DNA of 64,000 bases from an uncultured Gemmatimonadales bacterium (GCA_963783305.1 CAWAMW010000006.1:32001-96000); one strand, 5' to 3'; shown: positions 8,247 through 53,160, numbered from the stretch's first letter. Program-made: numbers and translations. Notes: generated by a model from the letters alone, not told the origin.

Positions 8247-10391
8247 ATGCTCCAGGCACCCGTCATCCTCGACGCAGACATGTCCGTCATCGCGGCGCTG
8301 GGCCGCCTGCGGAGCTATCCCGGCCACGCGCTCGTGGTGGTCCGGCGACAGCGGGATCTCGAGATCTTCTTCCACGTCTTTACGGTCGAGGCCCTCCAGG
8401 AGGAGCTGAGGGCGGGAGCGCCCGCTCGGGGATCGACAGACACCGTTGGGCGCGTCCTGGGCCTGGACCTGCGACCGGCCTCTCCCACACGACAGCTCGA
8501 GGACGGCGACGCATCCGACGCGACGTTCGGCGGTGTGCTCCTGGACGGGTTGGCGATTCTCGGGGTCGTCCGGCCCGATGTGATCGCCCGGACCCGCGCG
8601 GCGGCCCCGCGGGTCCCCGAGGAGGCCGTCGGGCGGGGCGGGGGCTTCCTGGCCCGAATGGGGGGAGGGCTGGGGCACCGCCGGACCCGCGGCCGCGCCC
8701 CGGAGGCCGTGCCCCCTGGCATGACCGGGGACGGCGAGGCGCTGGGGGAGCTCGAGTCTACGCGCGCATGGACCGGCGAGGTCGCGCTCCCGTCTTCCAC
8801 GCTGGAGGAGGAAAGCGTCGCCGAACCCGCGGCCGCGCCGATGCGGCGGTTCGAGGCCCACCCCCGCCTGGAGCTGGAGCACGACGTGGTGGAGCCCGGC
8901 CAGCGGTTCGAGCTGACCGTCGGCCTCGCGCGGGAAGCGGTGCAGGGGGTGAGCGGAAGCCTGATCACGGCGTCGATCCCGTCGAACGCCCGTCACCTCG
9001 ACCTGGACGTGCAGGTCGTCGCCGACGAGTTCCAGGCGCCCGCCGGCTGGTACTTTCGCCTACGGGTACCCGTGGATGCGCCGGAATCGGCGCAGATCGC
9101 CGTTCCACTGGTGGCTCCGGAAGGCGAAGTCACCCGTCAGACGCTCCTGGAAGTGCACTTCTCGCACGCCGGGGCTCCCGCGGGGGTGGCGTTCCGGCGG
9201 ATCGGCGTCCGAGCGGCGGCTGTCCCGTCGGTCCCTGGGGCCGGGGAGCCGTGGCTCCGCCCTACGGCGGCGCCGGCGATTCTCATCGATCCGGCCGATC
9301 CGCCGCCTGACCTATGGATCACCATCTCGAAGCCCGACGGCAACGAGGCGACGGGGCGGTTCCTGTGGAGCTTCCAGTCGCCGCACGACATCGAGCTGCC
9401 CCGGAGCCCTCTGCCCATGGACCTGGGGCACGACGCGCCGACCTTCGCCGCCCGGATCGTGCGGCTCGTGACGGAGAACGAGGGGTCGGAGCTCATTGAC
9501 GAGGCGCTGGTGGGGCTGGGCCGCCAGATCGCGGAGAAGGCCCCGGCGGAGCTCGGCCTCGTGCTGAGCCGCCTCCGGGCGGCCATCCCGGCTTCCGACC
9601 GCGCGCCGACGATCCTGCTCCAGAGCGCGGAAGCCCACGTGCCGTGGGAGCTTGCACTTCTCGACGATCCGCCGGATCCGACCCTGCCGCCACTCCTGGG
9701 AGCCCAGTTCGCCGTCGGCCGCTGGCTCCTCGGGCCCCGGACCGTGCGGATCCCGCCCGCCCGGGAGGTGGTGGTGCGGTCCATGGTGGTCGTGGCCGGC
9801 GACTACAAGAGCAGTCGGCGGCTCCGGCTCCTGCCCCAGGCCGAAGCCGAGGGCGACGCACTGGTGGCGCGGTACGGCGCGGCCCGGATGGCCGCCACCG
9901 CGCCGGAGCTGAACCGGCTCCTGGCCGGCGACTCGCAGGCCATCCACTTCGCCTGCCACGGCGAGGTCGACCCGGGGGACCCCGCCACCGGCCGGATCTT
10001 CCTCGACGACGACCAGCCACTGGACCCCATCCACTTCCTCCAGGCGGAGGTGGGGCGGCGTCATCAGCCGTTCCTCTTCCTGAACGCCTGCCAGGTGGGC
10101 CAGGCCGGTGAGCTCCTGGGCGACTATGCCGGGTTCGCCGGCAGCTGCCTGCGCAATGCGTTCCGCGGCTTCATCGCGCCACTCTGGTCCGTGGACGATG
10201 AGATCGCCCACACCATCGCGCTGGAGTTCTACGAGTCCGCTTTCGGAGACGAGCACCGGGACCCGATCCCCGTGGGCGAGGTGCTGCGGCGGATCCGGGC
10301 GCGGTTCCCCCGCAACGACTCCGTCGCCCCCTCCACGTGGCTGGCGTACGTCTTCTACGGGAATCCCAACCTCATCCTGCGGAGGGCTTGA
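8247..10391 (+). CDS. CHAT (caspase-like) domain protein with N-terminal CBS-like and beta-sandwich (TCAD7-like) regions
   Basis: VPWELA, IHFACHG (His), FLFLNACQVG (Cys), FIAPLWSVDD, WLAYVFYGNP. Confidence 0.88.
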   Translation: MLQAPVILDADMSVIAALGRLRSYPGHALVVVRRQRDLEIFFHVFTVEALQEELRAGAPARGSTDTVGRVLGLDLRPASPTRQLEDGDASDATFGGVLLDGLAILGVVRPDVIARTRAAAPRVPEEAVGRGGGFLARMGGGLGHRRTRGRAPEAVPPGMTGDGEALGELESTRAWTGEVALPSSTLEEESVAEPAAAPMRRFEAHPRLELEHDVVEPGQRFELTVGLAREAVQGVSGSLITASIPSNARHLDLDVQVVADEFQAPAGWYFRLRVPVDAPESAQIAVPLVAPEGEVTRQTLLEVHFSHAGAPAGVAFRRIGVRAAAVPSVPGAGEPWLRPTAAPAILIDPADPPPDLWITISKPDGNEATGRFLWSFQSPHDIELPRSPLPMDLGHDAPTFAARIVRLVTENEGSELIDEALVGLGRQIAEKAPAELGLVLSRLRAAIPASDRAPTILLQSAEAHVPWELALLDDPPDPTLPPLLGAQFAVGRWLLGPRTVRIPPAREVVVRSMVVVAGDYKSSRRLRLLPQAEAEGDALVARYGAARMAATAPELNRLLAGDSQAIHFACHGEVDPGDPATGRIFLDDDQPLDPIHFLQAEVGRRHQPFLFLNACQVGQAGELLGDYAGFAGSCLRNAFRGFIAPLWSVDDEIAHTIALEFYESAFGDEHRDPIPVGEVLRRIRARFPRNDSVAPSTWLAYVFYGNPNLILRRA

Positions 10392-11896
10392 TGGACCGCT
10401 TCGACCTCCATGGCGGCGGCCGACCGGTCGATATCGGCGCGGGCTACGTCCTCCGGGCACCGGGGCTGGCAGGCGTGGGCGAGGTGTTCACGCCCCGACC
10501 GGGCCGAGCCGTAAGTCGCGCTGCCGCCCCCGCGACGCCGGAGTTGGAGGCGGCGTTCGCGAGTACGGACGTGGAGGAGGCCGCCACCATCGCGCTGGAG
10601 GTCCAATCCACCGCCCCGCCGGCCGGCGAGACGACGCTGCGATCGGCGGCGGGTCAGGAAGCGCTGGAGCTGGAGGTTCCCGACCTGGGTCCCGCGCGCG
10701 GGCAGATGATCCTCTCCATAGGCGAGAACGGGGTGGCCACCTGGCACTTCCCGGAGCCCGTTGCCGGACGCGGGACCGGCACCAGCAGGGGGGGAGGCCC
10801 GACGCGTCGGTTCCTGATCCCCAGCGAGCCGGTCCCGCCGCCGACCGCACCGGCCACGCACCGGGGCTTCGTCGGCGCCATTGGCCGGAAGCTCCTCAAG
10901 GTGCTGGTCTACCCGGTGACCGACGACCTGATCGGTGCGGCCGGGAACGCGTTCGCGGCCAGGTGGGAGGCCGGGCACCGTCCCTATCGGGTCCGCCGGT
11001 TCGCTCCCGAGAGCTACACGAGCCCGGACGTGCCCGACCTGGAGCCGGATGACTGGCGTGGCCTGGCGGATGGACCGGCCCTCCTCTTCGTTCACGGCAC
11101 CTTCAGCACCTCCCACGGCGCGTTCGGGGGCCTCCCGCTGGCTCTCGTCCAGGAGCTCGATCGTCGCTACGACGGGCGAGTCATCGCTTTCGACGCTCAC
11201 ACCCTATCGGAGGATCCCGTCCGGAACGCCGCTACCTTCCTGGCCGCGATCCCCGCCGGCGCCTCGCTCGAGCTGGACGTGGTCTGCCACAGCCGTGGCG
11301 GGCTGGTGTCCCGGCAGCTGGCGGCGCAGCGGGAGGCCGGCGGCGGCACCGCCGAGGTGCGACGGGGCGTGTTCGTGGGCGTTCCCAATGCCGGCACCGC
11401 CCTGGCCGATCCGGACCACCTGATCCACATGATCGACCGCTTCACCACGGCGATGCTGCTGATCCCCGGTGGACCGGTGACGGAGATCATGGAGGGCGTG
11501 ATCACGGCCGTGAAGGTACTCGGTCACGGGGTGGTGGGCGGCCTGCCCGGGCTGGCGGCCATGCGGCCGGGCGGCGAGCTGCTCCGTGGCCTGGCCGGGG
11601 TCCCCACAACGGGCGAGTGGTATGCCATCACCGCCGATTACGAGCCGCCGGCGGACACCCTGGGGAGGCTGGTCCGGACCACCGCGGTCGACCTCGTCAT
11701 GGATCGGGTGTTCGGCAGCGATCCAAACGACCTGGTCGTCCCGACGACCGGCGTATTCGAGGCGGAGGGAGCGGCCGGGTTCCCCATCCCCGAGGGCCGG
11801 ATCCAACGATTCGGGGCCGCCGCCGGGGTCACGCACACAACCTATTTCTCGGCGCCCGAAACCGTTCGGGCTCTAGAGAACTGGCTGCGGGGCTGA
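10391..11896 (+). CDS. Alpha/beta-hydrolase (lipase/PGAP1-like) with ~200-aa N-terminal extension
   Basis: ATG overlaps the upstream TGA (TGATG); LFVHGTFS, VCHSRGGLVSR nucleophile elbow, GVPNAGT, NDLVVP (Asp), VTHTTYF (His). Confidence 0.88.
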   Translation: MDRFDLHGGGRPVDIGAGYVLRAPGLAGVGEVFTPRPGRAVSRAAAPATPELEAAFASTDVEEAATIALEVQSTAPPAGETTLRSAAGQEALELEVPDLGPARGQMILSIGENGVATWHFPEPVAGRGTGTSRGGGPTRRFLIPSEPVPPPTAPATHRGFVGAIGRKLLKVLVYPVTDDLIGAAGNAFAARWEAGHRPYRVRRFAPESYTSPDVPDLEPDDWRGLADGPALLFVHGTFSTSHGAFGGLPLALVQELDRRYDGRVIAFDAHTLSEDPVRNAATFLAAIPAGASLELDVVCHSRGGLVSRQLAAQREAGGGTAEVRRGVFVGVPNAGTALADPDHLIHMIDRFTTAMLLIPGGPVTEIMEGVITAVKVLGHGVVGGLPGLAAMRPGGELLRGLAGVPTTGEWYAITADYEPPADTLGRLVRTTAVDLVMDRVFGSDPNDLVVPTTGVFEAEGAAGFPIPEGRIQRFGAAAGVTHTTYFSAPETVRALENWLRG

Positions 11897-11913
11897 CCCG
11901 CGGAGGAGGCTGG

Positions 11914-14034
11914 ATGGCCAGGAACTACGAAAACTTCGACCTCGAGATCCGGGGCGGCGATGACGGCTACACCGTTCACCTCGTCTCACCGGCGGGACGG
12001 GTGACCGCGCCGTTCCGGATCCCCCTCACGGACCAGGAGCTCAAGATCCTGGGGCTCACCGTGGCCCGGGGTCGGCGGACCCGCGCGCTGGCCAGCACCC
12101 GCGAGGTGGACGAGGTAAAGGCGTACGGTCAGCGTTTGTTCGACGGGCTGTTCACCGGAGATGTCCTGGGAAGCTACCAGGCCAGCCTCGGCGGCCTCCG
12201 GGCAGACCGACATACGGGTCTCCGGATCCGGCTCCGTCTCACCGACGCGCCCGAGCTCGCTCAGATCCCCTGGGAATACCTGTACGATGCACCCAATCGG
12301 CGATTCCTCGCCCTGGAGGACGAGACCCCCATCGTCCGCTATCTCGACCTGCCCCTGCCGACCGGGCCCCTCCGGGTCGAGCCCCCGCTCCGGATCCTGG
12401 TCATGATCGCCAGCCCCGGGGACATCCCGCCCCTCGATGTGGCCGAGGAGTGGGCCCGTCTCAACCAGGCGCTGGCCGACCTGGTCCGGGCCGGCCACGT
12501 CGAGCTGCACCGGCTCGATCACGCCACCGTGTCCGGCCTCCGCTGGAAGCTCAAGGAAGAGGAGTTCCACGTCTTCCACTTCATCGGGCACGGCGGCGTG
12601 GACGGCCCCACTGGCCGGGGCGTGCTCATCTTCGAGGACACCGAGGGCCGCTCCGACGCCGTGGACGCCGAGACCGTCGCCGGACTCCTGTCCGCCGAGC
12701 GCACGCTCCGGCTGGCGGTTCTCAACGCCTGCGAGGGAGGACGGGCCAGCGCTGGCGACATCTACGCCGGAACCGCCCAGACCCTCGTCCAGCGGGACGT
12801 CCCCGCCGTCATCGCCATGCAGTTCGAGATCAGCGACGAAGCCGCCATCGCCCTCACCCACGACTTCTACAAGGCCCTCTCCCTCGGTGACCCCGTGGAC
12901 GCCGCCCTCACGGAGGCCCGGCGCGGACTGCGGTGGGAGCAACGGAACGAGCTGGAATGGGGCACGCCCGTCCTCTACACCCGCGCCGCCGACGGCCGGC
13001 TGTTCGATGTCACCGGCGAGGCCCGGCCGCCGGACGCGTCGACCCTCCCACCCGCACAGCCCCCGTCGGAGGTGGTGGAGGCCAGCGCGCCGGGACAGCG
13101 GCCCGCCACTCCCGAAGATCGAGACCGGGCACGACGGATCGCCGGTCTGATCCACGAGAGCCAGCTCGCGGTCTACTCGGAGCGTTGGGGTGACGCGGCG
13201 GCGCTCCTCCAGGAAGTTCTCGACCTGGAGCCGGAGCACGGCGAAGCCATCAAGCGGCTGGCGGCGGTGCGCCGGGAGGAGCAGGTCGCTACCCTCTACC
13301 GCACCGCCGCCGACCACCAGCAGGCGGGAGACATTGCCGCCGCCGTGGCCGGATTCGAGCGGGTCCGGGATATCGATCCCGAGTACAGAGGGGTGACGCA
13401 GCACATAAAGCTGCTTCAGAAGGAGCAGAAGGCCGCCCTGTCGTCCCGCAGAGTCGACACCGGCGCCGCTGACCGGAACGAGCGATCGCCGGATCGCAGC
13501 CCCCGATCACGCGCCCCGCGGATCGCGGCGGGAGCGGCCCTGGTCGTTGCGGGCGGATTGGCGTTCAGCGCGTGGTACGGCGAGCCGAGCGTGGTGCCCG
13601 TGCCGGTGCACACCCCGGCCGTGGTCGAGCCAGAGGCGCCGGACGCCCCGGCCTACGAGCCCCCGTACGAGCCGGATCCGGCTCCGGCGACCGTGGCGAG
13701 TCCGATGAACCGGGACGCAGAGGCCCGCCAGCTGGGGCTGGTCCCGGCCGGGTCAGCCCTCACCGGCAGACTGGCCGAGGGTGGGGAGCAGGTCTACGAC
13801 CTCCCGCTCCAGGCGGGAAACACCTACGTGATAGCCGGCTCCTGCAATGGGGCGTGCGAGGACCTCGACCTGGCGATGAGCGAGGTCGGCAACGTCATCG
13901 CCGTGGACGACCAGCTCGATGCCGAGCCGGTGGTGACGCTGGTGGTACTGGTAACCGCCACGTATCAGCTTCACGTCACCATGCCGGGCTGCGCCGCCGG
14001 GAGCTGCGCCTACCGGGTCCAGCCGTACCGCTGA
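11914..14034 (+). CDS. Membrane-anchored CHAT-TPR protease with extracytoplasmic PPC-like domain
   Basis: GGAGGAGG RBS then MARNYENFDLEI; IPWEYLYD, FHFIGHG (His), VLNACEG (Cys), EWGTPVLY; TPR-like helices; TM IAAGAALVVAGGLAFSAWY; Cys-containing C-terminal beta domain. Confidence 0.88.
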   Translation: MARNYENFDLEIRGGDDGYTVHLVSPAGRVTAPFRIPLTDQELKILGLTVARGRRTRALASTREVDEVKAYGQRLFDGLFTGDVLGSYQASLGGLRADRHTGLRIRLRLTDAPELAQIPWEYLYDAPNRRFLALEDETPIVRYLDLPLPTGPLRVEPPLRILVMIASPGDIPPLDVAEEWARLNQALADLVRAGHVELHRLDHATVSGLRWKLKEEEFHVFHFIGHGGVDGPTGRGVLIFEDTEGRSDAVDAETVAGLLSAERTLRLAVLNACEGGRASAGDIYAGTAQTLVQRDVPAVIAMQFEISDEAAIALTHDFYKALSLGDPVDAALTEARRGLRWEQRNELEWGTPVLYTRAADGRLFDVTGEARPPDASTLPPAQPPSEVVEASAPGQRPATPEDRDRARRIAGLIHESQLAVYSERWGDAAALLQEVLDLEPEHGEAIKRLAAVRREEQVATLYRTAADHQQAGDIAAAVAGFERVRDIDPEYRGVTQHIKLLQKEQKAALSSRRVDTGAADRNERSPDRSPRSRAPRIAAGAALVVAGGLAFSAWYGEPSVVPVPVHTPAVVEPEAPDAPAYEPPYEPDPAPATVASPMNRDAEARQLGLVPAGSALTGRLAEGGEQVYDLPLQAGNTYVIAGSCNGACEDLDLAMSEVGNVIAVDDQLDAEPVVTLVVLVTATYQLHVTMPGCAAGSCAYRVQPYR

Positions 14035-16152: not shown

Positions 16153-17310
16153 ATGAGCGACAGGAATCCATTCGAGTACGGGCGGGAGCTGGACCGTGCG
16201 GAGTTGGTGGACCGCGAGGCCGAGCTGACGGAGATCGCGCGCGTGATCCGGAACCGCGGGAAGCTGTTCCTCATAGGGCCGCGCCGGTTCGGCAAGACCT
16301 CGCTGCTGGCCGCGGCGGCGGCGGATGCGACCCGGGCGGGGACGGTGGTCCTCCGGTTCGATGCGGAGAAGTACGAGACGCTGCCGCTCCTGGCGGCGGC
16401 CATCCTGACGGCGGCGGTGCGGTCGCTCCAGGGGCCGGTAGAGAAGCTGGCCGGGATGCTGGCGCGGGCGGCGTCGCGGCTGCGGCCGACGGTGGAGGTG
16501 GACCCGCTGACGGGGGCGGTCTCGGTGGGGATTGGGGCGTCGTCATCGGAGTTGGGTGCGCTGCCGCTGCTGGCGGAGTCGCTGGACGCGGTGGAGGTGT
16601 TGGCGGCGGAGTCGGGTCGGGACGTGGTGGTGGTGCTGGACGAAGTGCAGCAGGTGGTGGTGGAGCACGGCGAGGCGGCGGAGCGGCAGCTGCGGGCGAC
16701 GGTGCAGGGGCATCGTCACGTGGGATACATCTTCGCCGGGTCGGCGACTCGCCTCCTGACGGCCATGACGACGGACGCGAACCGGCCCTTCTACCGGCTG
16801 GGCGCCATAACCTTCCTGGGCCCGGTCCCCGCGGCCGACTTCCTGGCCTTCCTGGACGAGGGCTTCCGCGCGAGCGGGTTCGCCGTTGCGGAGGGCGGAT
16901 GCGCCCGTATTCTCGAGCGCGCGGACGGGGTGCCGTACAACGTGCAGCGGCTGGCCCACGAGGCGTGGGAGATGCTGCGGGCGGGCGAGGTCTCGTCGCT
17001 GGAGCCGTCGGTGGTGGATCGTGCGGTGGAGCGCATCGTCGCCCGGGAGGACCCGGCGTACACGCAGCTGTGGACGTCGCTTACGACGAACCAGAAGAAG
17101 TCCCTGAAGGCGGCCATCGCGCTGGGAGGCACGGGGCTGCAGTCGGCCGAGGCCGGGCGGCGGTTCGACATCTCGCCGGCCAGTGTCCAGGTGGCGCTGG
17201 CGGCGCTGGAGGACCGACACCTGCTCCGGCGGGAAACGGACGCGGCCGGCCGCTACCGGCTGGTGGACCCGTTCCTGGCCGCCTGGCTCGCGGCGGCGCA
17301 GTCGGTATGA
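16153..17310 (+). CDS. P-loop ATPase (archaeal ATPase/STAND-like) with C-terminal winged HTH
   Basis: NPFEYG, LVDREAEL, Walker A GPRRFGKT, Walker B VVLDEVQ, FAGS, GVPYNVQ, YRLVDPFLAAWL. Confidence 0.88.
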   Translation: MSDRNPFEYGRELDRAELVDREAELTEIARVIRNRGKLFLIGPRRFGKTSLLAAAAADATRAGTVVLRFDAEKYETLPLLAAAILTAAVRSLQGPVEKLAGMLARAASRLRPTVEVDPLTGAVSVGIGASSSELGALPLLAESLDAVEVLAAESGRDVVVVLDEVQQVVVEHGEAAERQLRATVQGHRHVGYIFAGSATRLLTAMTTDANRPFYRLGAITFLGPVPAADFLAFLDEGFRASGFAVAEGGCARILERADGVPYNVQRLAHEAWEMLRAGEVSSLEPSVVDRAVERIVAREDPAYTQLWTSLTTNQKKSLKAAIALGGTGLQSAEAGRRFDISPASVQVALAALEDRHLLRRETDAAGRYRLVDPFLAAWLAAAQSV

Positions 17311-17450: not shown

Positions 17451-17870
17451 TCAGGCCGCGGGCGTCGCGGCCCGCCGGACGTCGGGTGCAGCCGTCACGC
17501 CGTGGGCCCTCAGGAGCGTGCTGGCCTGCATGAGCAGGTGACGCGGCGACACGGGCTTGGCGAGGGCCATGTCCGCGTGGACGCCGGCGGGCGGGGTCGG
17601 GCGGAACGGATCGATGCTGGTGGAGCAGAGGATGGTCGGCGTGCGCTGCCCCGGCACCAGGGCCGCCATGGTCCGGATGGCGTCGACCCAGACCGGGTCG
17701 TCGTACACCTCCGTCACGACCAGGGCCGGCTCGAAACGGGCGAACAGCCGGAGCCCATCCTCCGCGTTCTCCGCCTCGACAACGACATGACCGTGGTGAC
17801 GGAAGCAGTCGCCGTACATGGACCGCGTGGCCGCGCTGGGATCGATCAACAGAATGGGCGCGTTCCTCAT
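17451..17870 (-). CDS. Stand-alone atypical response-regulator receiver domain
   Basis: ILLIDP, VVEAENAEDGL, LVVTE (Glu at the phospho-Asp position), LAKPVSPRHL. Confidence 0.75.
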   Translation of the reverse strand: MRNAPILLIDPSAATRSMYGDCFRHHGHVVVEAENAEDGLRLFARFEPALVVTEVYDDPVWVDAIRTMAALVPGQRTPTILCSTSIDPFRPTPPAGVHADMALAKPVSPRHLLMQASTLLRAHGVTAAPDVRRAATPAA

Positions 17871-18269
17871 CAGACACTCCTCGTCGAGGTGCAGTACAGG
17901 GGGAGAGGAGGCCCGGAAACAGGGCGAGAGCCGTGCTACCGTGGCGGAGAATCCGGCAAGATGTTCAGGCCCAACGACATGGGGCGCCGGCACGGCCTTT
18001 GGCAGCCGCGTGGCGGCATGGCAACGTGCAGCGTTCGTGGCACTATGCACGGGCGGTGGGGGCTCCCCCGCGCCCGCCTGACGTCTCGACAGCCAGCACG
18101 AGAAGCCGACTGTCACGCCCAAGTGGAGCCAGCTCCCGACATCCTCGCCGGTCCAACCCTCGTTTGCTACTCTGGAGCTGCCCCCCCGACCCGATCCCGG
18201 CTAGAATCGCCGACGCCGGCCACCCGGTCCGACCAAAGGAGGCGGCGACGTTCCGTCCCCTGCGGGCTC

Positions 18270-18671
18270 ATGGTGGCCAACCTCCTGGCCCACACGGACC
18301 TGTTCGCCGCCGGGATCGCCCGGAGCGGCTCGTACAACAAGACCAACCAGCCGTTCGGATTCCAGTCCGAGCGACGATCGCTGTTCGAGGCGCGGGAGGC
18401 GTACATCCAGCTCTCGCCGACGTTCTTCGCCGACCAGGTGAACGAGCCCGTGCTCGTCATCCACGGCAACGACGACTCGAACCCCGGCACCCGCACCTAC
18501 CAGAGCGAGGTCTTCTTCGAGGCCGTGCGTGGTTCCGGCGGCACCACGCGGCTGGTGCTCCTCCCCTTCGAGGACCACGGCTACCGGGCCATCGAGAGCA
18601 TCGAGCACGTGCTCTGGGAGCAGCTCGAGTGGTTCGACCGGTACGTGAAGGGGAAGCACGCAGCGAAGTAG
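18270..18671 (+). pseudogene. C-terminal fragment of an S9 prolyl oligopeptidase-family (glutamyl peptidase-like) enzyme
   Basis: MVANLLAHTDLFAAGIARSGSYN..PFGFQSERR, IHGNDDSNPGT, LPFEDHGY; homology begins just after the GHSYG nucleophile motif, which is absent. Confidence 0.75.
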
Positions 18672-24535: not shown

Positions 24536-24559
24536 TCGCAAACAAACGTTTGATTGCGA
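24536..24559. promoter_or_regulatory. 24-bp near-perfect palindrome TCGCAAaCAAACGTTTGaTTGCGA, putative operator
   Basis: One mismatched pair; in the divergent spmA/subtilase intergenic region. Confidence 0.55.
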
Positions 24560-24706
24560 TGTAGGGTATTCCACCACATCCATGTGGGGCGATACCCTGC
24601 AGGTGAGCGTGTCGTGAACGGGCGTGTCCAGCTCGTGACCACCCCGGAAGCCTCACCCTTCGTGGTCGGACCCCCGTCCCGAACCCCCCATGAAAGGTGC
24701 TCGACC

Positions 24707-26911
24707 ATGCTCAAACGTATGCCCCTGTTCCTGCTCGGCTTCCTGATCATCGCCCTTGCTTCGTGCGGCGAGATCGCGGAACCTCCCACCGAAGACCAGC
24801 TCGCCCCTGCGAACGATCTCGCAGCGGCGCTCGCGGCAGCTCCAGGCGGAGAGAAGGTGCGCGTCATCCTGGAGGTCAGGGGCATGGCCTCGGTCCAGGG
24901 TATGGCCGCCACGCTCGGCAGCAGCGCCAACAGCCGCGTGCTCCGGACGTACAACAACTTCCCGCTGCTCGCGATCGAGGTGAACGAAAACGCTCTCGAG
25001 GCGCTTCAGAGGGCCCCCGGCATCGTCTCCGTGACGCCGGACATCGCCTCGCCGCCCGCGCTGGACGCGAGCCTGCCGGTGATCAACGCGGATGACGTCC
25101 ACGCTCTGGGCTGGGACGGCAGCGGCTGGACGGTCGCGATCCTCGACACGGGAATCGACCAGGACCACCCGTTCCTCACGGGCCGGATCGTCTCGCAGGC
25201 CTGCTACTCGACGGAGGACCCGGGCAACAACATATTCTCGCTGTGCCCCGGGAGCGCCACCAGCTCGACGGCCGCCAACGCGGCGGATATCGACACCGCA
25301 CTGTGCAACAACACCGGTAATCTCTGCGACCACGGCACGCACGTGGCCGGTATCGCGGCCGGTGACGGTACGGGTGTGGCCGGTGCCCCCGCAGCGGGCG
25401 TGGCCCCGGGAGCGAACATCATCGCCATCCAGGTCTTCACCCCCAACGATATCCTGACGCGGCTTCAGACCACCGGCGTGCCTATCAACTACGTCAGCGG
25501 CGGCGCCAACGTCACCACCCCCAGGATCGACCTTCTGGCCGCGCTGCAGACCACGGCCGCTCCGCCGGTGCTCACCGCCGACAACGCCACCGTCACCGTC
25601 GACGAGGGCCAGACGGCCACGAACACCGGCACCTTCGCATCCGATGACGGTTCGGTAACCCTGGCCGCCTCCATCGGCAGCGTCGTGGACGCCGGCGGCG
25701 GCGTGTGGTCGTGGAGCTACGCCACCAGCGATGGCCCCGCCCAGAGTCAGACGGTGACCATCACCGGTTCGGACGAGCTCGGACAGGACGGCGACGTCTC
25801 CTTCGACCTGGTCGTGGAGAACGTGGCTCCTACGGTCACCATCGTTGGCGCCCAGTCCATGAGCCTGGACGAGGGCGGTGACCTGCTGGTGACCGGTCAC
25901 TTCACCGATCCGGGCACGCTCGACACCCACACCGCCACCGTCACCTGCCACACCGTCGGCGGGGGACTGGACAAGGCCGGCAGCATCAACATCACGAGCA
26001 CGACGCCGGTCACGGCAGGCACCGTGACCGCCACCTGCCCGTACGGGGATGACAGCGATCCGACTTTCGCCGTGACAGTCACCGTGACGGACAGCGACGG
26101 GGGCGAGGGGTCGGCGTCGTTCGACCTCACGGTGAACAACGTGGATCCGACCGTCGCGATCGACGAGACCGGCACGATCCTGGTCAATGGCACGCCCACC
26201 TTCATCGCCCAGATCGGCGTACCGCTGAGCTTCGATGGCAACGCCACCGATCCCGGCAGTGACGACCTCGAGATGGAGTGGGACTGGGACGACGGCAGCA
26301 CCACGAACACCATGTACCTGGTGAACCCGCCCGCGGCGGATCCGCTGCCGAGCCCGGACGTGGACCCCAGGGACGTGGACGATACCCAGTCGCACACGTG
26401 GACGGACGCGTGCACGTTCGCGGTCTCGCTCACCGCCACGGATGACGACGGCGGAGCGGGGAGTGACGGCGTGAGCGTCGTCATTGCAGGCAACTCCGGC
26501 CAGGCCCGCAGTCAGGGGTATTGGCAGACGGAGTACAGGGGCAAGACGAAGAAGTTCGACAACGCCACCCTGGACTGCTACCTGAGCATTGTCGGCTTCA
26601 TGTCCGCGGTCTTCGACGAGGTAGTGGACGCCTCCACGAAGGAGAAGGCGGCCAAGATCCTGCATCCGGGGGGCAACACCGGGATGGCGGAGCTCCTCGA
26701 CATCCAGCTGCTGGCGGCCTGGCTCAACTTCGCCAACGGCGCCTTTGGCTGGGATGAGCTCGTGGACACCGATGGCGACAAGGTGCCCGACACGGCGTTC
26801 TCCACCGCCATAATGGCGGCCGAGGCCGTCCGGCTGGATCCGTTCGCGACCACAGCCGAGCTCGAGGCGCAGAAGAACATCCTCGAGTGGATCAACCTGA
26901 TGCACGAGTAA
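24707..26911 (+). CDS. S8 subtilase-like lipoprotein with I9 propeptide and PKD/Ig repeats; catalytic domain internally deleted
   Basis: Lipobox LASC; ILDTGID (Asp); DHGTHVAGIAAG (His); no GTSMA Ser motif; repeated NVAPTV/FTDPG and TDSDGG PKD-like units. Confidence 0.82.
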   Translation: MLKRMPLFLLGFLIIALASCGEIAEPPTEDQLAPANDLAAALAAAPGGEKVRVILEVRGMASVQGMAATLGSSANSRVLRTYNNFPLLAIEVNENALEALQRAPGIVSVTPDIASPPALDASLPVINADDVHALGWDGSGWTVAILDTGIDQDHPFLTGRIVSQACYSTEDPGNNIFSLCPGSATSSTAANAADIDTALCNNTGNLCDHGTHVAGIAAGDGTGVAGAPAAGVAPGANIIAIQVFTPNDILTRLQTTGVPINYVSGGANVTTPRIDLLAALQTTAAPPVLTADNATVTVDEGQTATNTGTFASDDGSVTLAASIGSVVDAGGGVWSWSYATSDGPAQSQTVTITGSDELGQDGDVSFDLVVENVAPTVTIVGAQSMSLDEGGDLLVTGHFTDPGTLDTHTATVTCHTVGGGLDKAGSINITSTTPVTAGTVTATCPYGDDSDPTFAVTVTVTDSDGGEGSASFDLTVNNVDPTVAIDETGTILVNGTPTFIAQIGVPLSFDGNATDPGSDDLEMEWDWDDGSTTNTMYLVNPPAADPLPSPDVDPRDVDDTQSHTWTDACTFAVSLTATDDDGGAGSDGVSVVIAGNSGQARSQGYWQTEYRGKTKKFDNATLDCYLSIVGFMSAVFDEVVDASTKEKAAKILHPGGNTGMAELLDIQLLAAWLNFANGAFGWDELVDTDGDKVPDTAFSTAIMAAEAVRLDPFATTAELEAQKNILEWINLMHE

Positions 26912-52005: not shown

Positions 52006-53160
52006 ATGAGCCATACCCCATTCCGGATCGGCGACCACGTCACCGGCGCGTTCTTCACCGACCGGGCGGCGGAGGTGAGCCGGATCGTGCGTGCGCTGCG
52101 GGAGCCGACGCGGCTGCTCGTGTTCGGAGCGCGGCGGGTGGGGAAGAGCTCGGCGATCGCGGTGGCGATGGAGCGGGCGCGGGCGGAGGGGGTGCTGGTG
52201 GTGCGGGCGGACCTCTCGACGGCGAGCAGCCTGGTGGACGTGGCGAACCGGCTGCTGCACTCGTTGTCGGGGCAGCGGCCGGGGGACCGGCTGGCGGAGC
52301 TGGCGGCTGCGCTGTCGCCGCACGTGACCCTGTCGTTCGACGAGGCGTCGGGGGCGCCGCGGCTGGCGTTCGGGGTCGCGCGTCGTCGTGAGGCGGAGGA
52401 AGGGCAGCGGCGGTCGCTGGAGTCGGTGATCGAGCGGCTGGCGAAGGGGGTGGGTTCTGGGTCGGGGGAGTCGGAGCGGGTGGCGGTGGTCCTGGACGAG
52501 TTCCAGGCGATCCGACGGCTGGGCGGCGAATCGGGGGAGTGGTACCTGCGGGACCTGATCCAGCGTCACGGGGAGCTGAGTTTCGTGTGCGCGGGGTCGG
52601 AGGTGACGCTCATTCACGAGATGCTGGGGCAGGACCGAGCGTTTTTTCGGGCGTTCGAGCTGCTGCACCTGGGGGCGATCGACGCGGACCACCTCGGCCG
52701 CTGGATCGATGACCGGCTTACGGGGGCGGGGGTCGCCGCGAAGGGAGTGGGTGCGGCGGTCATCGCCGCGGTGGGCCCACGCACGCAGGACGTGCTGCAG
52801 GTGGCGCGGCACGTCCACGCGCGCGGCGTGGGTGCGGGCGTGGTGGGTGCGGACGACGTGGAAGAGGCGGTGCTGGACGTGGTTCGGGAGGAGGACCCCG
52901 TGATCCGGACCACGTGGCTCAACCTGACTGCGCACCAGCAGAACGTGCTTCGTGCGGTGGCGTCGGGAGTGGACCAGCTGTTCGCGTCGGCGACGCGGGA
53001 GCGGTTCGGTCTGTCCACGTCCTCGACGGTTGCCACGGCCGTGGACGCTCTCGAGTCGAGGGGGATCCTCTTCCGGGAGGGCGAGGCCATCACCTTCGAC
53101 AGCCCGTTCGTTCGCTGCTGGGTGGAGCGCGAGGCACTGCCCGACGTCCCGCCTCACTGA
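52006..53160 (+). CDS. P-loop ATPase (archaeal ATPase/STAND-like) with C-terminal winged HTH, paralog of 16153-17310
   Basis: TPFRIG, FTDRAAEV, Walker A GARRVGKS, Walker B VVLDEFQ, CAGS, WLNLTAHQQ, FDSPFVRCWV. Confidence 0.88.
   Translation: MSHTPFRIGDHVTGAFFTDRAAEVSRIVRALREPTRLLVFGARRVGKSSAIAVAMERARAEGVLVVRADLSTASSLVDVANRLLHSLSGQRPGDRLAELAAALSPHVTLSFDEASGAPRLAFGVARRREAEEGQRRSLESVIERLAKGVGSGSGESERVAVVLDEFQAIRRLGGESGEWYLRDLIQRHGELSFVCAGSEVTLIHEMLGQDRAFFRAFELLHLGAIDADHLGRWIDDRLTGAGVAAKGVGAAVIAAVGPRTQDVLQVARHVHARGVGAGVVGADDVEEAVLDVVREEDPVIRTTWLNLTAHQQNVLRAVASGVDQLFASATRERFGLSTSSTVATAVDALESRGILFREGEAITFDSPFVRCWVEREALPDVPPH

Follow-up and report, generated by a model that had tools for sequence, protein, structure and literature searches.

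The window analyzed here, a 64,000-nucleotide stretch from the genome of an uncultured Gemmatimonadales bacterium (GCA_963783305.1, CAWAMW010000006.1:32001-96000), carries on its plus strand three co-oriented open reading frames (ORFs), hereafter genes A, B, and C. They encode a soluble CHAT protease, an alpha/beta hydrolase of the family DUF7379, and a second CHAT protein with a predicted membrane helix (Table 1). Our analysis indicates that A and B represent a real and widespread protease-hydrolase module with predicted cut sites, to which a putative membrane sensor protease is optionally added. A and B are coupled by an overlapping stop and start codon, and a gap of 17 bp (11897-11913) containing a ribosome-binding site separates B from C. 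The codon usage of the three genes is typical of real genes, with a GC content of 0.86–0.89 at third (GC3) versus 0.49–0.55 at second codon positions (GC2). The flanking genes, which code for an S15 peptidase (divergent) and a small membrane protein (convergent), are both located on the minus strand. An initial annotation had described three tightly coupled genes between unrelated opposite-strand neighbors, with both CHAT dyads and the Ser-Asp-His triad of the middle gene intact, and all of this can be read directly from the ORF coordinates and family alignments. Its statement that no CRISPR, cyclase or gasdermin gene is nearby also holds, as Pfam matches to CRISPR, CD-NTase, gasdermin, MoxR or vWA families were absent from the 42 other ORFs of the window. 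Features that it did not contain are the TCAD7 and Ig-like domains of A, the conserved Arg motifs, and the PPC-like ectodomain of C.

Table 1 Features of the three-gene locus. Positions are counted from the first letter of the window; aa, amino acid positions.
Feature	Position	Strand	Description or basis
Gene A	8247..10391	+	TCAD7 - disordered linker - Ig-like domain - separase-like CHAT protease; 714 aa, soluble
TCAD7 domain of A (aa 2-101)	8250..8549	+	PF19973, E 3e-7, above cut-off
Low-confidence linker of A (~aa 124-190)	8616..8816	+	R130-G131 and T147-R148-G149; candidate activation cut
Ig-like (macroglobulin-type) beta-sandwich of A (aa 200-325)	8844..9221	+	Structure matches
CHAT protease module of A (aa 345-714)	9279..10388	+	Dyad; fold matches to Csx29 and separase
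Catalytic dyad of A	His571 9957-9959; Cys615 10089-10091	+	Sequence, alignment
TGATG stop/start overlap	10389..10393	+	A-to-B coupling; read from sequence
Gene B	10391..11896	+	DUF7379 alpha/beta hydrolase with N-terminal pro-region; 501 aa; PF24096, E 4e-51
Four conserved Arg of the B pro-region	10517..10864	+	R43 (10517), R84 (10640), R133 (10787), R158 (10862); predicted P1 residues
Cationic amphipathic helix right after R158 (aa 159-172)	10865..10906	+	Predicted new N-terminus and membrane anchor
Catalytic triad of B	11291..11836	+	Ser301 (11291), Asp447 (11729), His482 (11834); family alignments
GGAGGAGG ribosome-binding site in B-C gap	11902..11909	+	Read from sequence
Gene C	11914..14034	+	HetF-like CHAT - TPR - membrane helix - PPC-like ectodomain; 706 aa; candidate sensor protease
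Catalytic dyad of C	12589..12732	+	His226 (12589), Cys273 (12730); sequence, relatives
Predicted membrane helix of C (aa 537-555)	13522..13578	+	Kyte-Doolittle hydropathy 1.67; after Arg-rich stretch
Small beta-rich C-terminal domain of C	13696..14031	+	PPC-like; structure-atlas scores 0.93-0.95

The host genome, which is 96% complete, contains no CHAT genes other than A and C, and their adjacency is therefore not a matter of chance. Cas1 and C14 caspases were not found in this genome, and the only SMODS match was below the cut-off and located on another contig. A scan of the locus for promoters and terminators yielded zero and one, respectively, and shuffled sequences gave equal counts. Among RNA sequencing runs, none was listed as containing the locus.

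The predicted model of A (mean predicted local distance difference test score (pLDDT) of 86) consists of an N-terminal domain, a disordered linker with pLDDT values below 50 at aa 124–133 and 136–182, an Ig-like sandwich, and a separase-like module. The TCAD7 copy at its N-terminus is the only one in the host genome; this domain is common in the family and not obligatory, since we counted it on 65 of the 120 A-family matches listed. Residues 198–326 matched domains of C3, C4, and alpha-2-macroglobulin with Z scores of ~10. The best overall fold match was separase (5fc2; Z 23.1, root-mean-square deviation (rmsd) 4.1, 313 aligned residues), followed by Csx29, and the Pfam CHAT domain was recognized at aa 458–706. 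H571 and C615 were invariant in all 120 aligned sequences, i.e., the query and 119 of its 161 matches. D651 is a further invariant residue of A and might contribute an acidic S1 pocket. Profile, catalytic dyad, and fold, the latter modeled for A alone, hence identify CHAT/separase-like clan CD proteases. Neither A nor B was named above cut-off by PADLOC or NCBIfam. In the literature, the matches listed for TCAD7 were all unrelated, and the searches retrieved no paper with the term ‘ternary complex associated domain’ and none that combined CHAT with zymogen terms. The Pfam name TCAD7 presumably points to the body of work of Kaur et al. (2020), and it suggests that the A-B pair has already at least been seen. 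The term is absent from the available main text and two supplements of that study (PMC7159879).

The family alignment supports a start of B at 10391, and we therefore used this longer form instead of the 396-aa version in the protein collection (P0004). Its predicted model (pLDDT 76) shows a beta-rich N-domain, two helices (aa 160–196), and a lipase/esterase core, which is preceded by a pro-region of ~195 residues. Fold matches covered approximately aa 195–501 and comprised generic lipases and esterases with 10–20% identity (BlEst2, PlaB, and Pseudomonas-type lipases), with BlEst2 as the best hit (6wpx; Z 16.2, rmsd 4.1, 228 aligned residues). S301, D447, and H482 were kept in 119, 120, and 120 of 120 aligned homologs and in 95, 97, and 97 of 98 representatives obtained by clustering at 50% identity, and an HG motif is located at aa 235–236, 65 residues ahead of Ser301. 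A structure-atlas search with aa 1–200 was uninformative, with a best score of 0.76. The B profile retrieved 1,267 clusters at 50% identity with E-values up to 1e-30. The family was not described in the available parts of PMC8195603 or PMC12799240, and a literature search found no paper naming DUF7379. An earlier computational description of the A-B pair may nevertheless exist. The prediction of a complex between A (aa 345–714) and B gave scores of 0.25 and 0.01, compared to a mark of 0.32.

The pro-region of B contains four conserved Arg residues, all of which precede aa 160 and lie in loops as Arg-Gly/Ser/Ala motifs. Across the 98 representatives of stand-alone length (of 135 considered; 31–56% identical to B), Arg was kept at R43, R84, R133, and R158 in 93, 89, 83, and 95 sequences, respectively. 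The pattern R[GS] occurred in the four loops in 59 of 97, 64 of 98, 77 of 98, and 90 of 97 sequences, whereas the maxima reached in shuffled sequences were 43, 49, 44, and 46. It exceeded all 300 shuffles for every loop and in three sequence sets (the 98 representatives, 120 stand-alone homologs, and 120 fused homologs). At the sequence level, the conserved motifs are R133-G and R158-G/S, and the commonest triplet at both sites is TRG. R158 was found exactly 17 residues ahead of P175 in 119 of 120 and 90 of 98 sequences. In fused forms of B the positions of R84 and R133 float, with the motif still above the shuffles. The segment directly following R158 (aa 159–172) is helical in the predicted model and has a mean net charge of +2.3 to +3; its family-mean hydrophobic moment ranked second and third among 487 start positions in two sets. 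The initial annotation had suggested that the membrane CHAT cleaves the soluble CHAT and/or removes the pro-region of the lipase, and the presence of a pro-region with likely cut sites supports the latter idea.

A related pattern was detected in the linker of A. In 100 linkers, which are unalignable, TR[GS] occurred 49 times compared to 8.7 in shuffles (maximum 17), and 45 cluster representatives contained it 16 times compared to 3.8 expected (maximum 11). In contrast, 96 compositionally similar control linkers from host proteins contained it twice with 7.0 expected. All five patterns that were tried were raised, with plain RG not exceeding the shuffle maximum in the representatives. Separase and clostripain cut after Arg. 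The same preference is known for metacaspases (10.1101/2023.06.23.546230). At two loci (L109:6256-9647 and L095:146-3534), two overlapping genes take the place of a metacaspase-B fusion; the B gene there starts at approximately residue 50 of the window’s B, which suggests that the R43 loop can be severed.

In C, the CHAT domain (aa 95–345) is followed by weak TPR matches (aa 417–491, under the Pfam cut-offs) and by a helix of moderate hydrophobicity, which has equivalents in the related loci L008, L013, L109, L112, L114, and L115. Because of the positive-inside rule and the Arg-rich stretch ahead of this helix, we infer an N-in topology, with the CHAT and TPR parts in the cytoplasm and the small domain outside. 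The resemblance of this domain, which is presumably periplasmic, to PPC is a lead only, as PF04151 was assigned in one cluster and to 24% of its members. The closest solved chain to C is SAVED-CHAT (8tl0, E 6.6e-9). A PADLOC match covers aa 144–385, that is the CHAT part, and no SAVED domain was detected with Pfam. C also matched the HetF model (NCBIfam NF045509; E 3.6e-26), and its identity as HetF was ruled out, since the score was 91.7 bits against an equivalog cut-off of 1200 and the match spanned aa 67–363 only. An origin of A and C by tandem duplication was rejected as well, because the two belong to distant clades and share 32% identity over 123 aa only.

We assessed the conservation of the gene arrangement by a metagenome profile scan with B, from which the best 80 of 566 confirmed loci were retained and reduced to 66 by collapsing at 90% identity. 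Of these, 52 had at least 400 bp upstream of B, and 14 shorter ones were dropped. An A-type CHAT gene was found directly upstream of B at 43 of the 52 loci and a C14 metacaspase fused or adjacent to B at seven. Among the best 120 of 607 longer B homologs examined, 117 contained a caspase-fold domain in the same chain and none was detected in three; C14 preceded B in 55 and followed it in 54, while CHAT followed in seven and preceded in one. The C14 dyad motifs were present in 52 of 55 and 54 of 54 of the respective C14 fusions. Pfam architectures (DUF7379-CHAT, C14-DUF7379, and DUF7362-DUF7379-TCAD7-DUF7363) likewise join this hydrolase family to caspase-fold proteases or to TCAD7 in single chains, whereas A and B in the window are separate genes. 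Cultured bacteria also carry the family, with a stand-alone B in Bradyrhizobium and fusions in Variovorax and Rubrivirga. In a quick tree of 101 hydrolase domains (two long outgroup branches, no approximately unbiased test), the partner labels were interleaved and needed 11 changes compared to a minimum of seven. The B-C14 fusions grouped in one starred clade nested among rows with a CHAT partner; another starred clade, comprising six CHAT-partnered rows and one orphan, was placed among C14-B fusions. These counts, together with one clostripain case described below, indicate that a clan CD protease accompanies B in almost all cases and that its type varies. Since a scan of the genome collection with a single protein gave two loci only, the cross-phylum counts rest on metagenome contigs.

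A second CHAT gene was the next gene downstream of B at eight of 45 metagenome loci with at least 1.2 kb of downstream sequence and at six of 30 loci with both A and B; at eight of 16 wide loci, it occurred somewhere in the flanks. An obligatory A-B-C triplet is rejected by these numbers. The neighborhood search proposed with the initial annotation thus confirmed the co-occurrence of protease and hydrolase (50 of 52 loci), and the trio of CHAT, lipase, and CHAT-TPR-membrane protein is not the conserved unit. The conserved core is the protease-hydrolase pair, in which a metacaspase can take the place of the soluble CHAT.

The arrangement is more consistent in the phylum of the host, for which we compared 13 loci with B scores above 300 bits (the window, L008, L010, L012, L013, L109, L111-L116, and L119). 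A co-oriented C-type CHAT gene lay right after B at eight of them; it was convergent at one and absent from four. It followed B irrespective of whether the first protease was an A-type CHAT or a metacaspase. A membrane-helix-like segment was present after the CHAT domain in seven of the eight C-type genes (in L013 by eye), and the ectodomains differed (Big_2 and unnamed beta domains). These counts are not independent, because the genomes are related (L112 and L115 are from the same genus). L008, a Gemmatimonadota metagenome-assembled genome, has all three genes with 65–74% identity to those of the window. The module was found in none of six genomes of the host’s genus and in 12 of 401 genomes sampled from the phylum, indicating a patchy distribution. 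Elsewhere, second CHATs near B carry STAND ATPase, SIR2-like, CHASE2, WD40, or Ig tails. As both the presence of C-type genes and their outside or tail domains vary, C behaves as an exchangeable sensor. The suggestion that the membrane CHAT senses an outside cue is consistent with the recurrence of a receptor-like membrane CHAT after B in this phylum, with the qualification that it is a variable partner.

Additional observations were made in the neighborhoods of A, B, and C homologs. In the single clostripain case (L009:7412-10164, Chloroflexia), a clostripain (C11) gene, a B homolog, and an adenylate/guanylate cyclase gene follow each other, and the B homolog lacks the N-domain and has the last Arg-Gly (R158-like) site. 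At L034:9644-17409, L069:1076-8619, and L046:9370-16757, B is followed by a CHAT gene and a gene of 1800–1960 aa; in L034 and L069, the CHAT gene includes a STAND ATPase and the giant gene a peptidoglycan-binding domain, with the remainder being Pfam-blank, as it also is in L046. A Ser/Thr kinase gene, mostly with TPRs, is located directly 5′ of the metacaspase-B gene at L109, L112, L113, and L114; a kinase also occurs in the SAVED-CHAT/PCaspase operon, and such kinases may simply be common in the host’s phylum. Giant proteins combining DUF7379, LCAT-like, CHAT, and TPR-S domains (L015:4243-9024 and L120:7541-13654) form a distant branch with two hydrolase domains. Three tandem genes of 125–160 aa at L128:15189-16545 have a tentative resemblance to nitrile-hydratase-leader precursors of ribosomally synthesized and post-translationally modified peptides; genes for an A-like CHAT, another CHAT, and a kinase-like protein are found nearby. 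At L023:3-5586 and L058:1-5416, the region upstream of A encodes a GT4 glycosyltransferase together with a large trypsin protein, and the region downstream of B an iron-containing redox enzyme. The EAD1 domain on the L058 trypsin protein ties these two loci to systems described in the available parts of PMC7159879.

The closest functional precedent is the LcCaspase/LcHydrolase pair of Lysobacter capsici, in which cleavage of the hydrolase by the caspase at a pair of R-G sites yields fragments that are lethal to E. coli (Evans et al. 2025, PMC12642450, to the extent available, as for all comparisons with this pair). Both pairs consist of a caspase-fold protease with an intact His/Cys dyad beside an alpha/beta hydrolase with a catalytic triad, and share conserved Arg-Gly motifs, a lipase-like fold, and diverse sensors. 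In contrast to the 501-aa B, LcHydrolase has 296 aa and lacks a pro-domain at its N-terminus; R73 and R117, its cleavage sites, are located inside the core between the HG motif (aa 8–9) and the nucleophile (~aa 183; counted by eye). In B, all four candidate sites lie before the core and an amphipathic helix follows the last one; moreover, its partner is a CHAT, and a second CHAT is added. An LcHydrolase-type architecture (~300 aa, sites flanking an insert in the core) was thus not found in B, which is set apart by architecture and positions as described rather than by alignment. Caspase domains are also always accompanied by a neighboring alpha/beta-hydrolase gene in the VMAP ternary and GTPase systems (Kaur et al. 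2020, available parts of PMC7159879), a likeness to the A-B pair. Membership in the VMAP (MoxR-vWA) systems was rejected, as MoxR, vWA, and VMAP were absent from the 42 window ORFs, 60 selected neighbors, and 90 neighbors (E 1e-15). The gene combination had been considered undescribed; with caspase/alpha/beta-hydrolase pairs already predicted (PMC7159879) and one of them shown to be a cut-activated death effector (PMC12642450), this view no longer stands in full. Taken together, the module is a putative relative of these bacterial cut-to-kill modules, here probably wired to a membrane sensor.

Other systems resemble parts of the locus. In type III-B CRISPR systems, SAVED-CHAT activates PCaspase by cleavage (10.1101/2023.06.23.546230, available text), which parallels a CHAT activating a second caspase-fold protease and includes the nearest solved relative of C. 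Unlike in that system, neither a SAVED domain nor a cyclic-nucleotide source nor a cas gene was found here, the proposed input is a membrane ectodomain or STAND module, and the proposed output is a hydrolase; membership was rejected since Pfam detected no SAVED domain and Cas1 was not found. EACC1-caspase systems share with C a constant N-terminal caspase-fold domain, often a membrane helix, and a variable C-terminal domain (PMC7159879 and PMC12642450, available parts). The 17-bp gap before C, the 501-aa hydrolase as the upstream gene, and the absence of EACC1 Pfam matches from A, B, and C led us to reject an affiliation with them. Csx29 of Craspase and separase resemble the locus in their CHAT fold, which combines a pseudo-protease with an active protease. 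DdvA, a membrane CHAT, has a link to defense; as far as described in the available parts of PMC11506125, its CHAT is periplasmic with an incomplete active site, whereas that of C is complete and predicted to be cytoplasmic. Neither a CRISPR effector nor a sigma factor is present at the locus.

Based on these results, we propose that B would be a latent lipase-like serine hydrolase held by its pro-region. A, or a metacaspase in other lineages, would cut B after the conserved pro-region Arg residues and remove the N-domain. Once cleaved after R158, the hydrolase would start at G159 with an exposed amphipathic helix, by which it could dock on the inner membrane, and ester hydrolysis there may cause cell damage or death. 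C would be an exchangeable membrane-anchored sensor with a variable outside domain that, upon a cue, would most likely cut the T-R-G linker of A and/or B; the linker of A is probably cut in any case, by C or by A itself. We consider it likely that B is made as a zymogen and that the partner protease cleaves it at Arg. Gene coupling, folds, catalytic residues, co-occurrence, fusions, and motif conservation lead us to favor, with some caution, a cut-to-activate conflict module as a whole, and we lean toward membrane damage or death in a conflict setting as its output; a conflict role is favored because of the patchy presence and the partner shuffling. That C acts upstream of A is conceivable and somewhat doubtful. 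The complete chain, a CRISPR- and nucleotide-independent cascade triggered at a receptor and running from a single-pass membrane CHAT with interchangeable ectodomains via the soluble CHAT or metacaspase to removal of the lipase pro-domain and exposure of the helix, is a tentative and rather unlikely proposal. The initial interpretation as a CHAT protease cascade with a lipase is thus supported in part.

Several points weigh against this proposal. It is built on genes and sequences, and cleavage, substrate, toxicity, and phage protection are all predictions. The 80 metagenome loci were picked by their likeness to B. The upstream protease was absent from two of the 52 loci (L043 and L076), no second CHAT gene followed next at 24 of the 30 A+B loci, and three distant A-like genes, one on a truncated contig, had no adjoining B. 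The fold does not fix the substrate of B because of its generic matches, and the column conservation of R84 and R133 in fused forms is partly made by the aligner because their spacing varies. B relatives were absent from the 41 pattern matches in viral contigs. PADLOC models (1e-10) were matched by eight of 108 neighbors from 16 wide loci, mostly through kinase, transporter, and enzyme folds, and only two ATPases (L038 and L062) were defense-like within mostly housekeeping neighborhoods. Hence, the loci are not defense islands, and the defense setting suggested initially was not corroborated.

These last observations would also fit the same proteolytic switch in a non-lethal role, with B remodeling membrane lipids or releasing a lipid signal as part of a pathway for development or stress responses, similar to HetF-type CHATs, which act in cell division and not in defense. 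The match of C’s CHAT module to the HetF model and the lack of a CRISPR or CBASS (cyclic oligonucleotide-based antiphage signaling system) link in the host genome are in line with such a role. We regard it as unlikely, since the patchy presence, the repeated partner exchange, and the highly variable sensor tails fit conflict systems better, and the sole tested caspase-hydrolase pair kills (PMC12642450, available parts). In another scenario A and B would be self-contained, with A sensing through its TCAD7 or Ig domain and C being a parallel B-cutting input or a passenger, without a C-to-A cascade. The frequent lack of a next-door second CHAT, its absence from the flanks of eight of the 16 wide loci, L043 with B and a C-type CHAT and no upstream protease within 568 bp, and the distance between A and C are compatible with this scenario. 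The position of C after B in the host’s phylum, whichever protease comes first, and the occurrence of TR[GS] in both the A linker and B, though self-cleavage also explains the latter, leave it with a small chance. Finally, structural or lipid-head-group-binding Arg motifs in a constitutively active B, with proteases that regulate by binding or hit other targets, might be suspected from the moderate-confidence loops of R43 and R84, the N-terminal domain without an identified fold, and the GC-rich and Arg-rich sequences, and are highly improbable given the preference for a small residue after Arg beyond composition, the retention of the motif despite varying spacing as in linear cut sites, the lack of enrichment in same-genome control linkers, and the intact dyads of the partner proteases.

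For the large uncharacterized DUF7379 family, the proposed proteolytic activation would provide a concrete mechanism, with predicted cuts at R43, R84, R133, and R158 and a helix freed at G159. The target of caspase-activated hydrolases, which was left open in the available text of the 2025 study (PMC12642450), could be settled with the DUF7379 module. If C indeed triggers A, the locus would encode an initiator-to-executioner relay of caspase-like proteases started at the cell surface. So far, a bacterial two-protease relay has been shown for a CRISPR-linked, nucleotide-triggered pair (10.1101/2023.06.23.546230, available text). A three-tier cascade, if true, would amount to a bacterial equivalent of extrinsic caspase signaling of the death-receptor type and would involve a second, architecturally distinct class of hydrolase zymogens, spread across many phyla.

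Outside the three-gene locus, a few other genes of the window deserve mention. The ORF at 17502-18671 has a prolyl oligopeptidase match confined to its C-terminal part and resembles a gene fragment; it is overlapped by a response-regulator-like minus-strand ORF without a Pfam match. A subtilase S8 gene (24554-26911) matches positions 1–96 of the 288-position profile, followed by a PKD-like region, and its protease may be internally deleted. Two similar archaeal-type AAA ATPase genes (16153-17310 and 52006-53160) encode proteins of 385 and 384 aa, the first of which has a C-terminal MarR-like helix-turn-helix domain.

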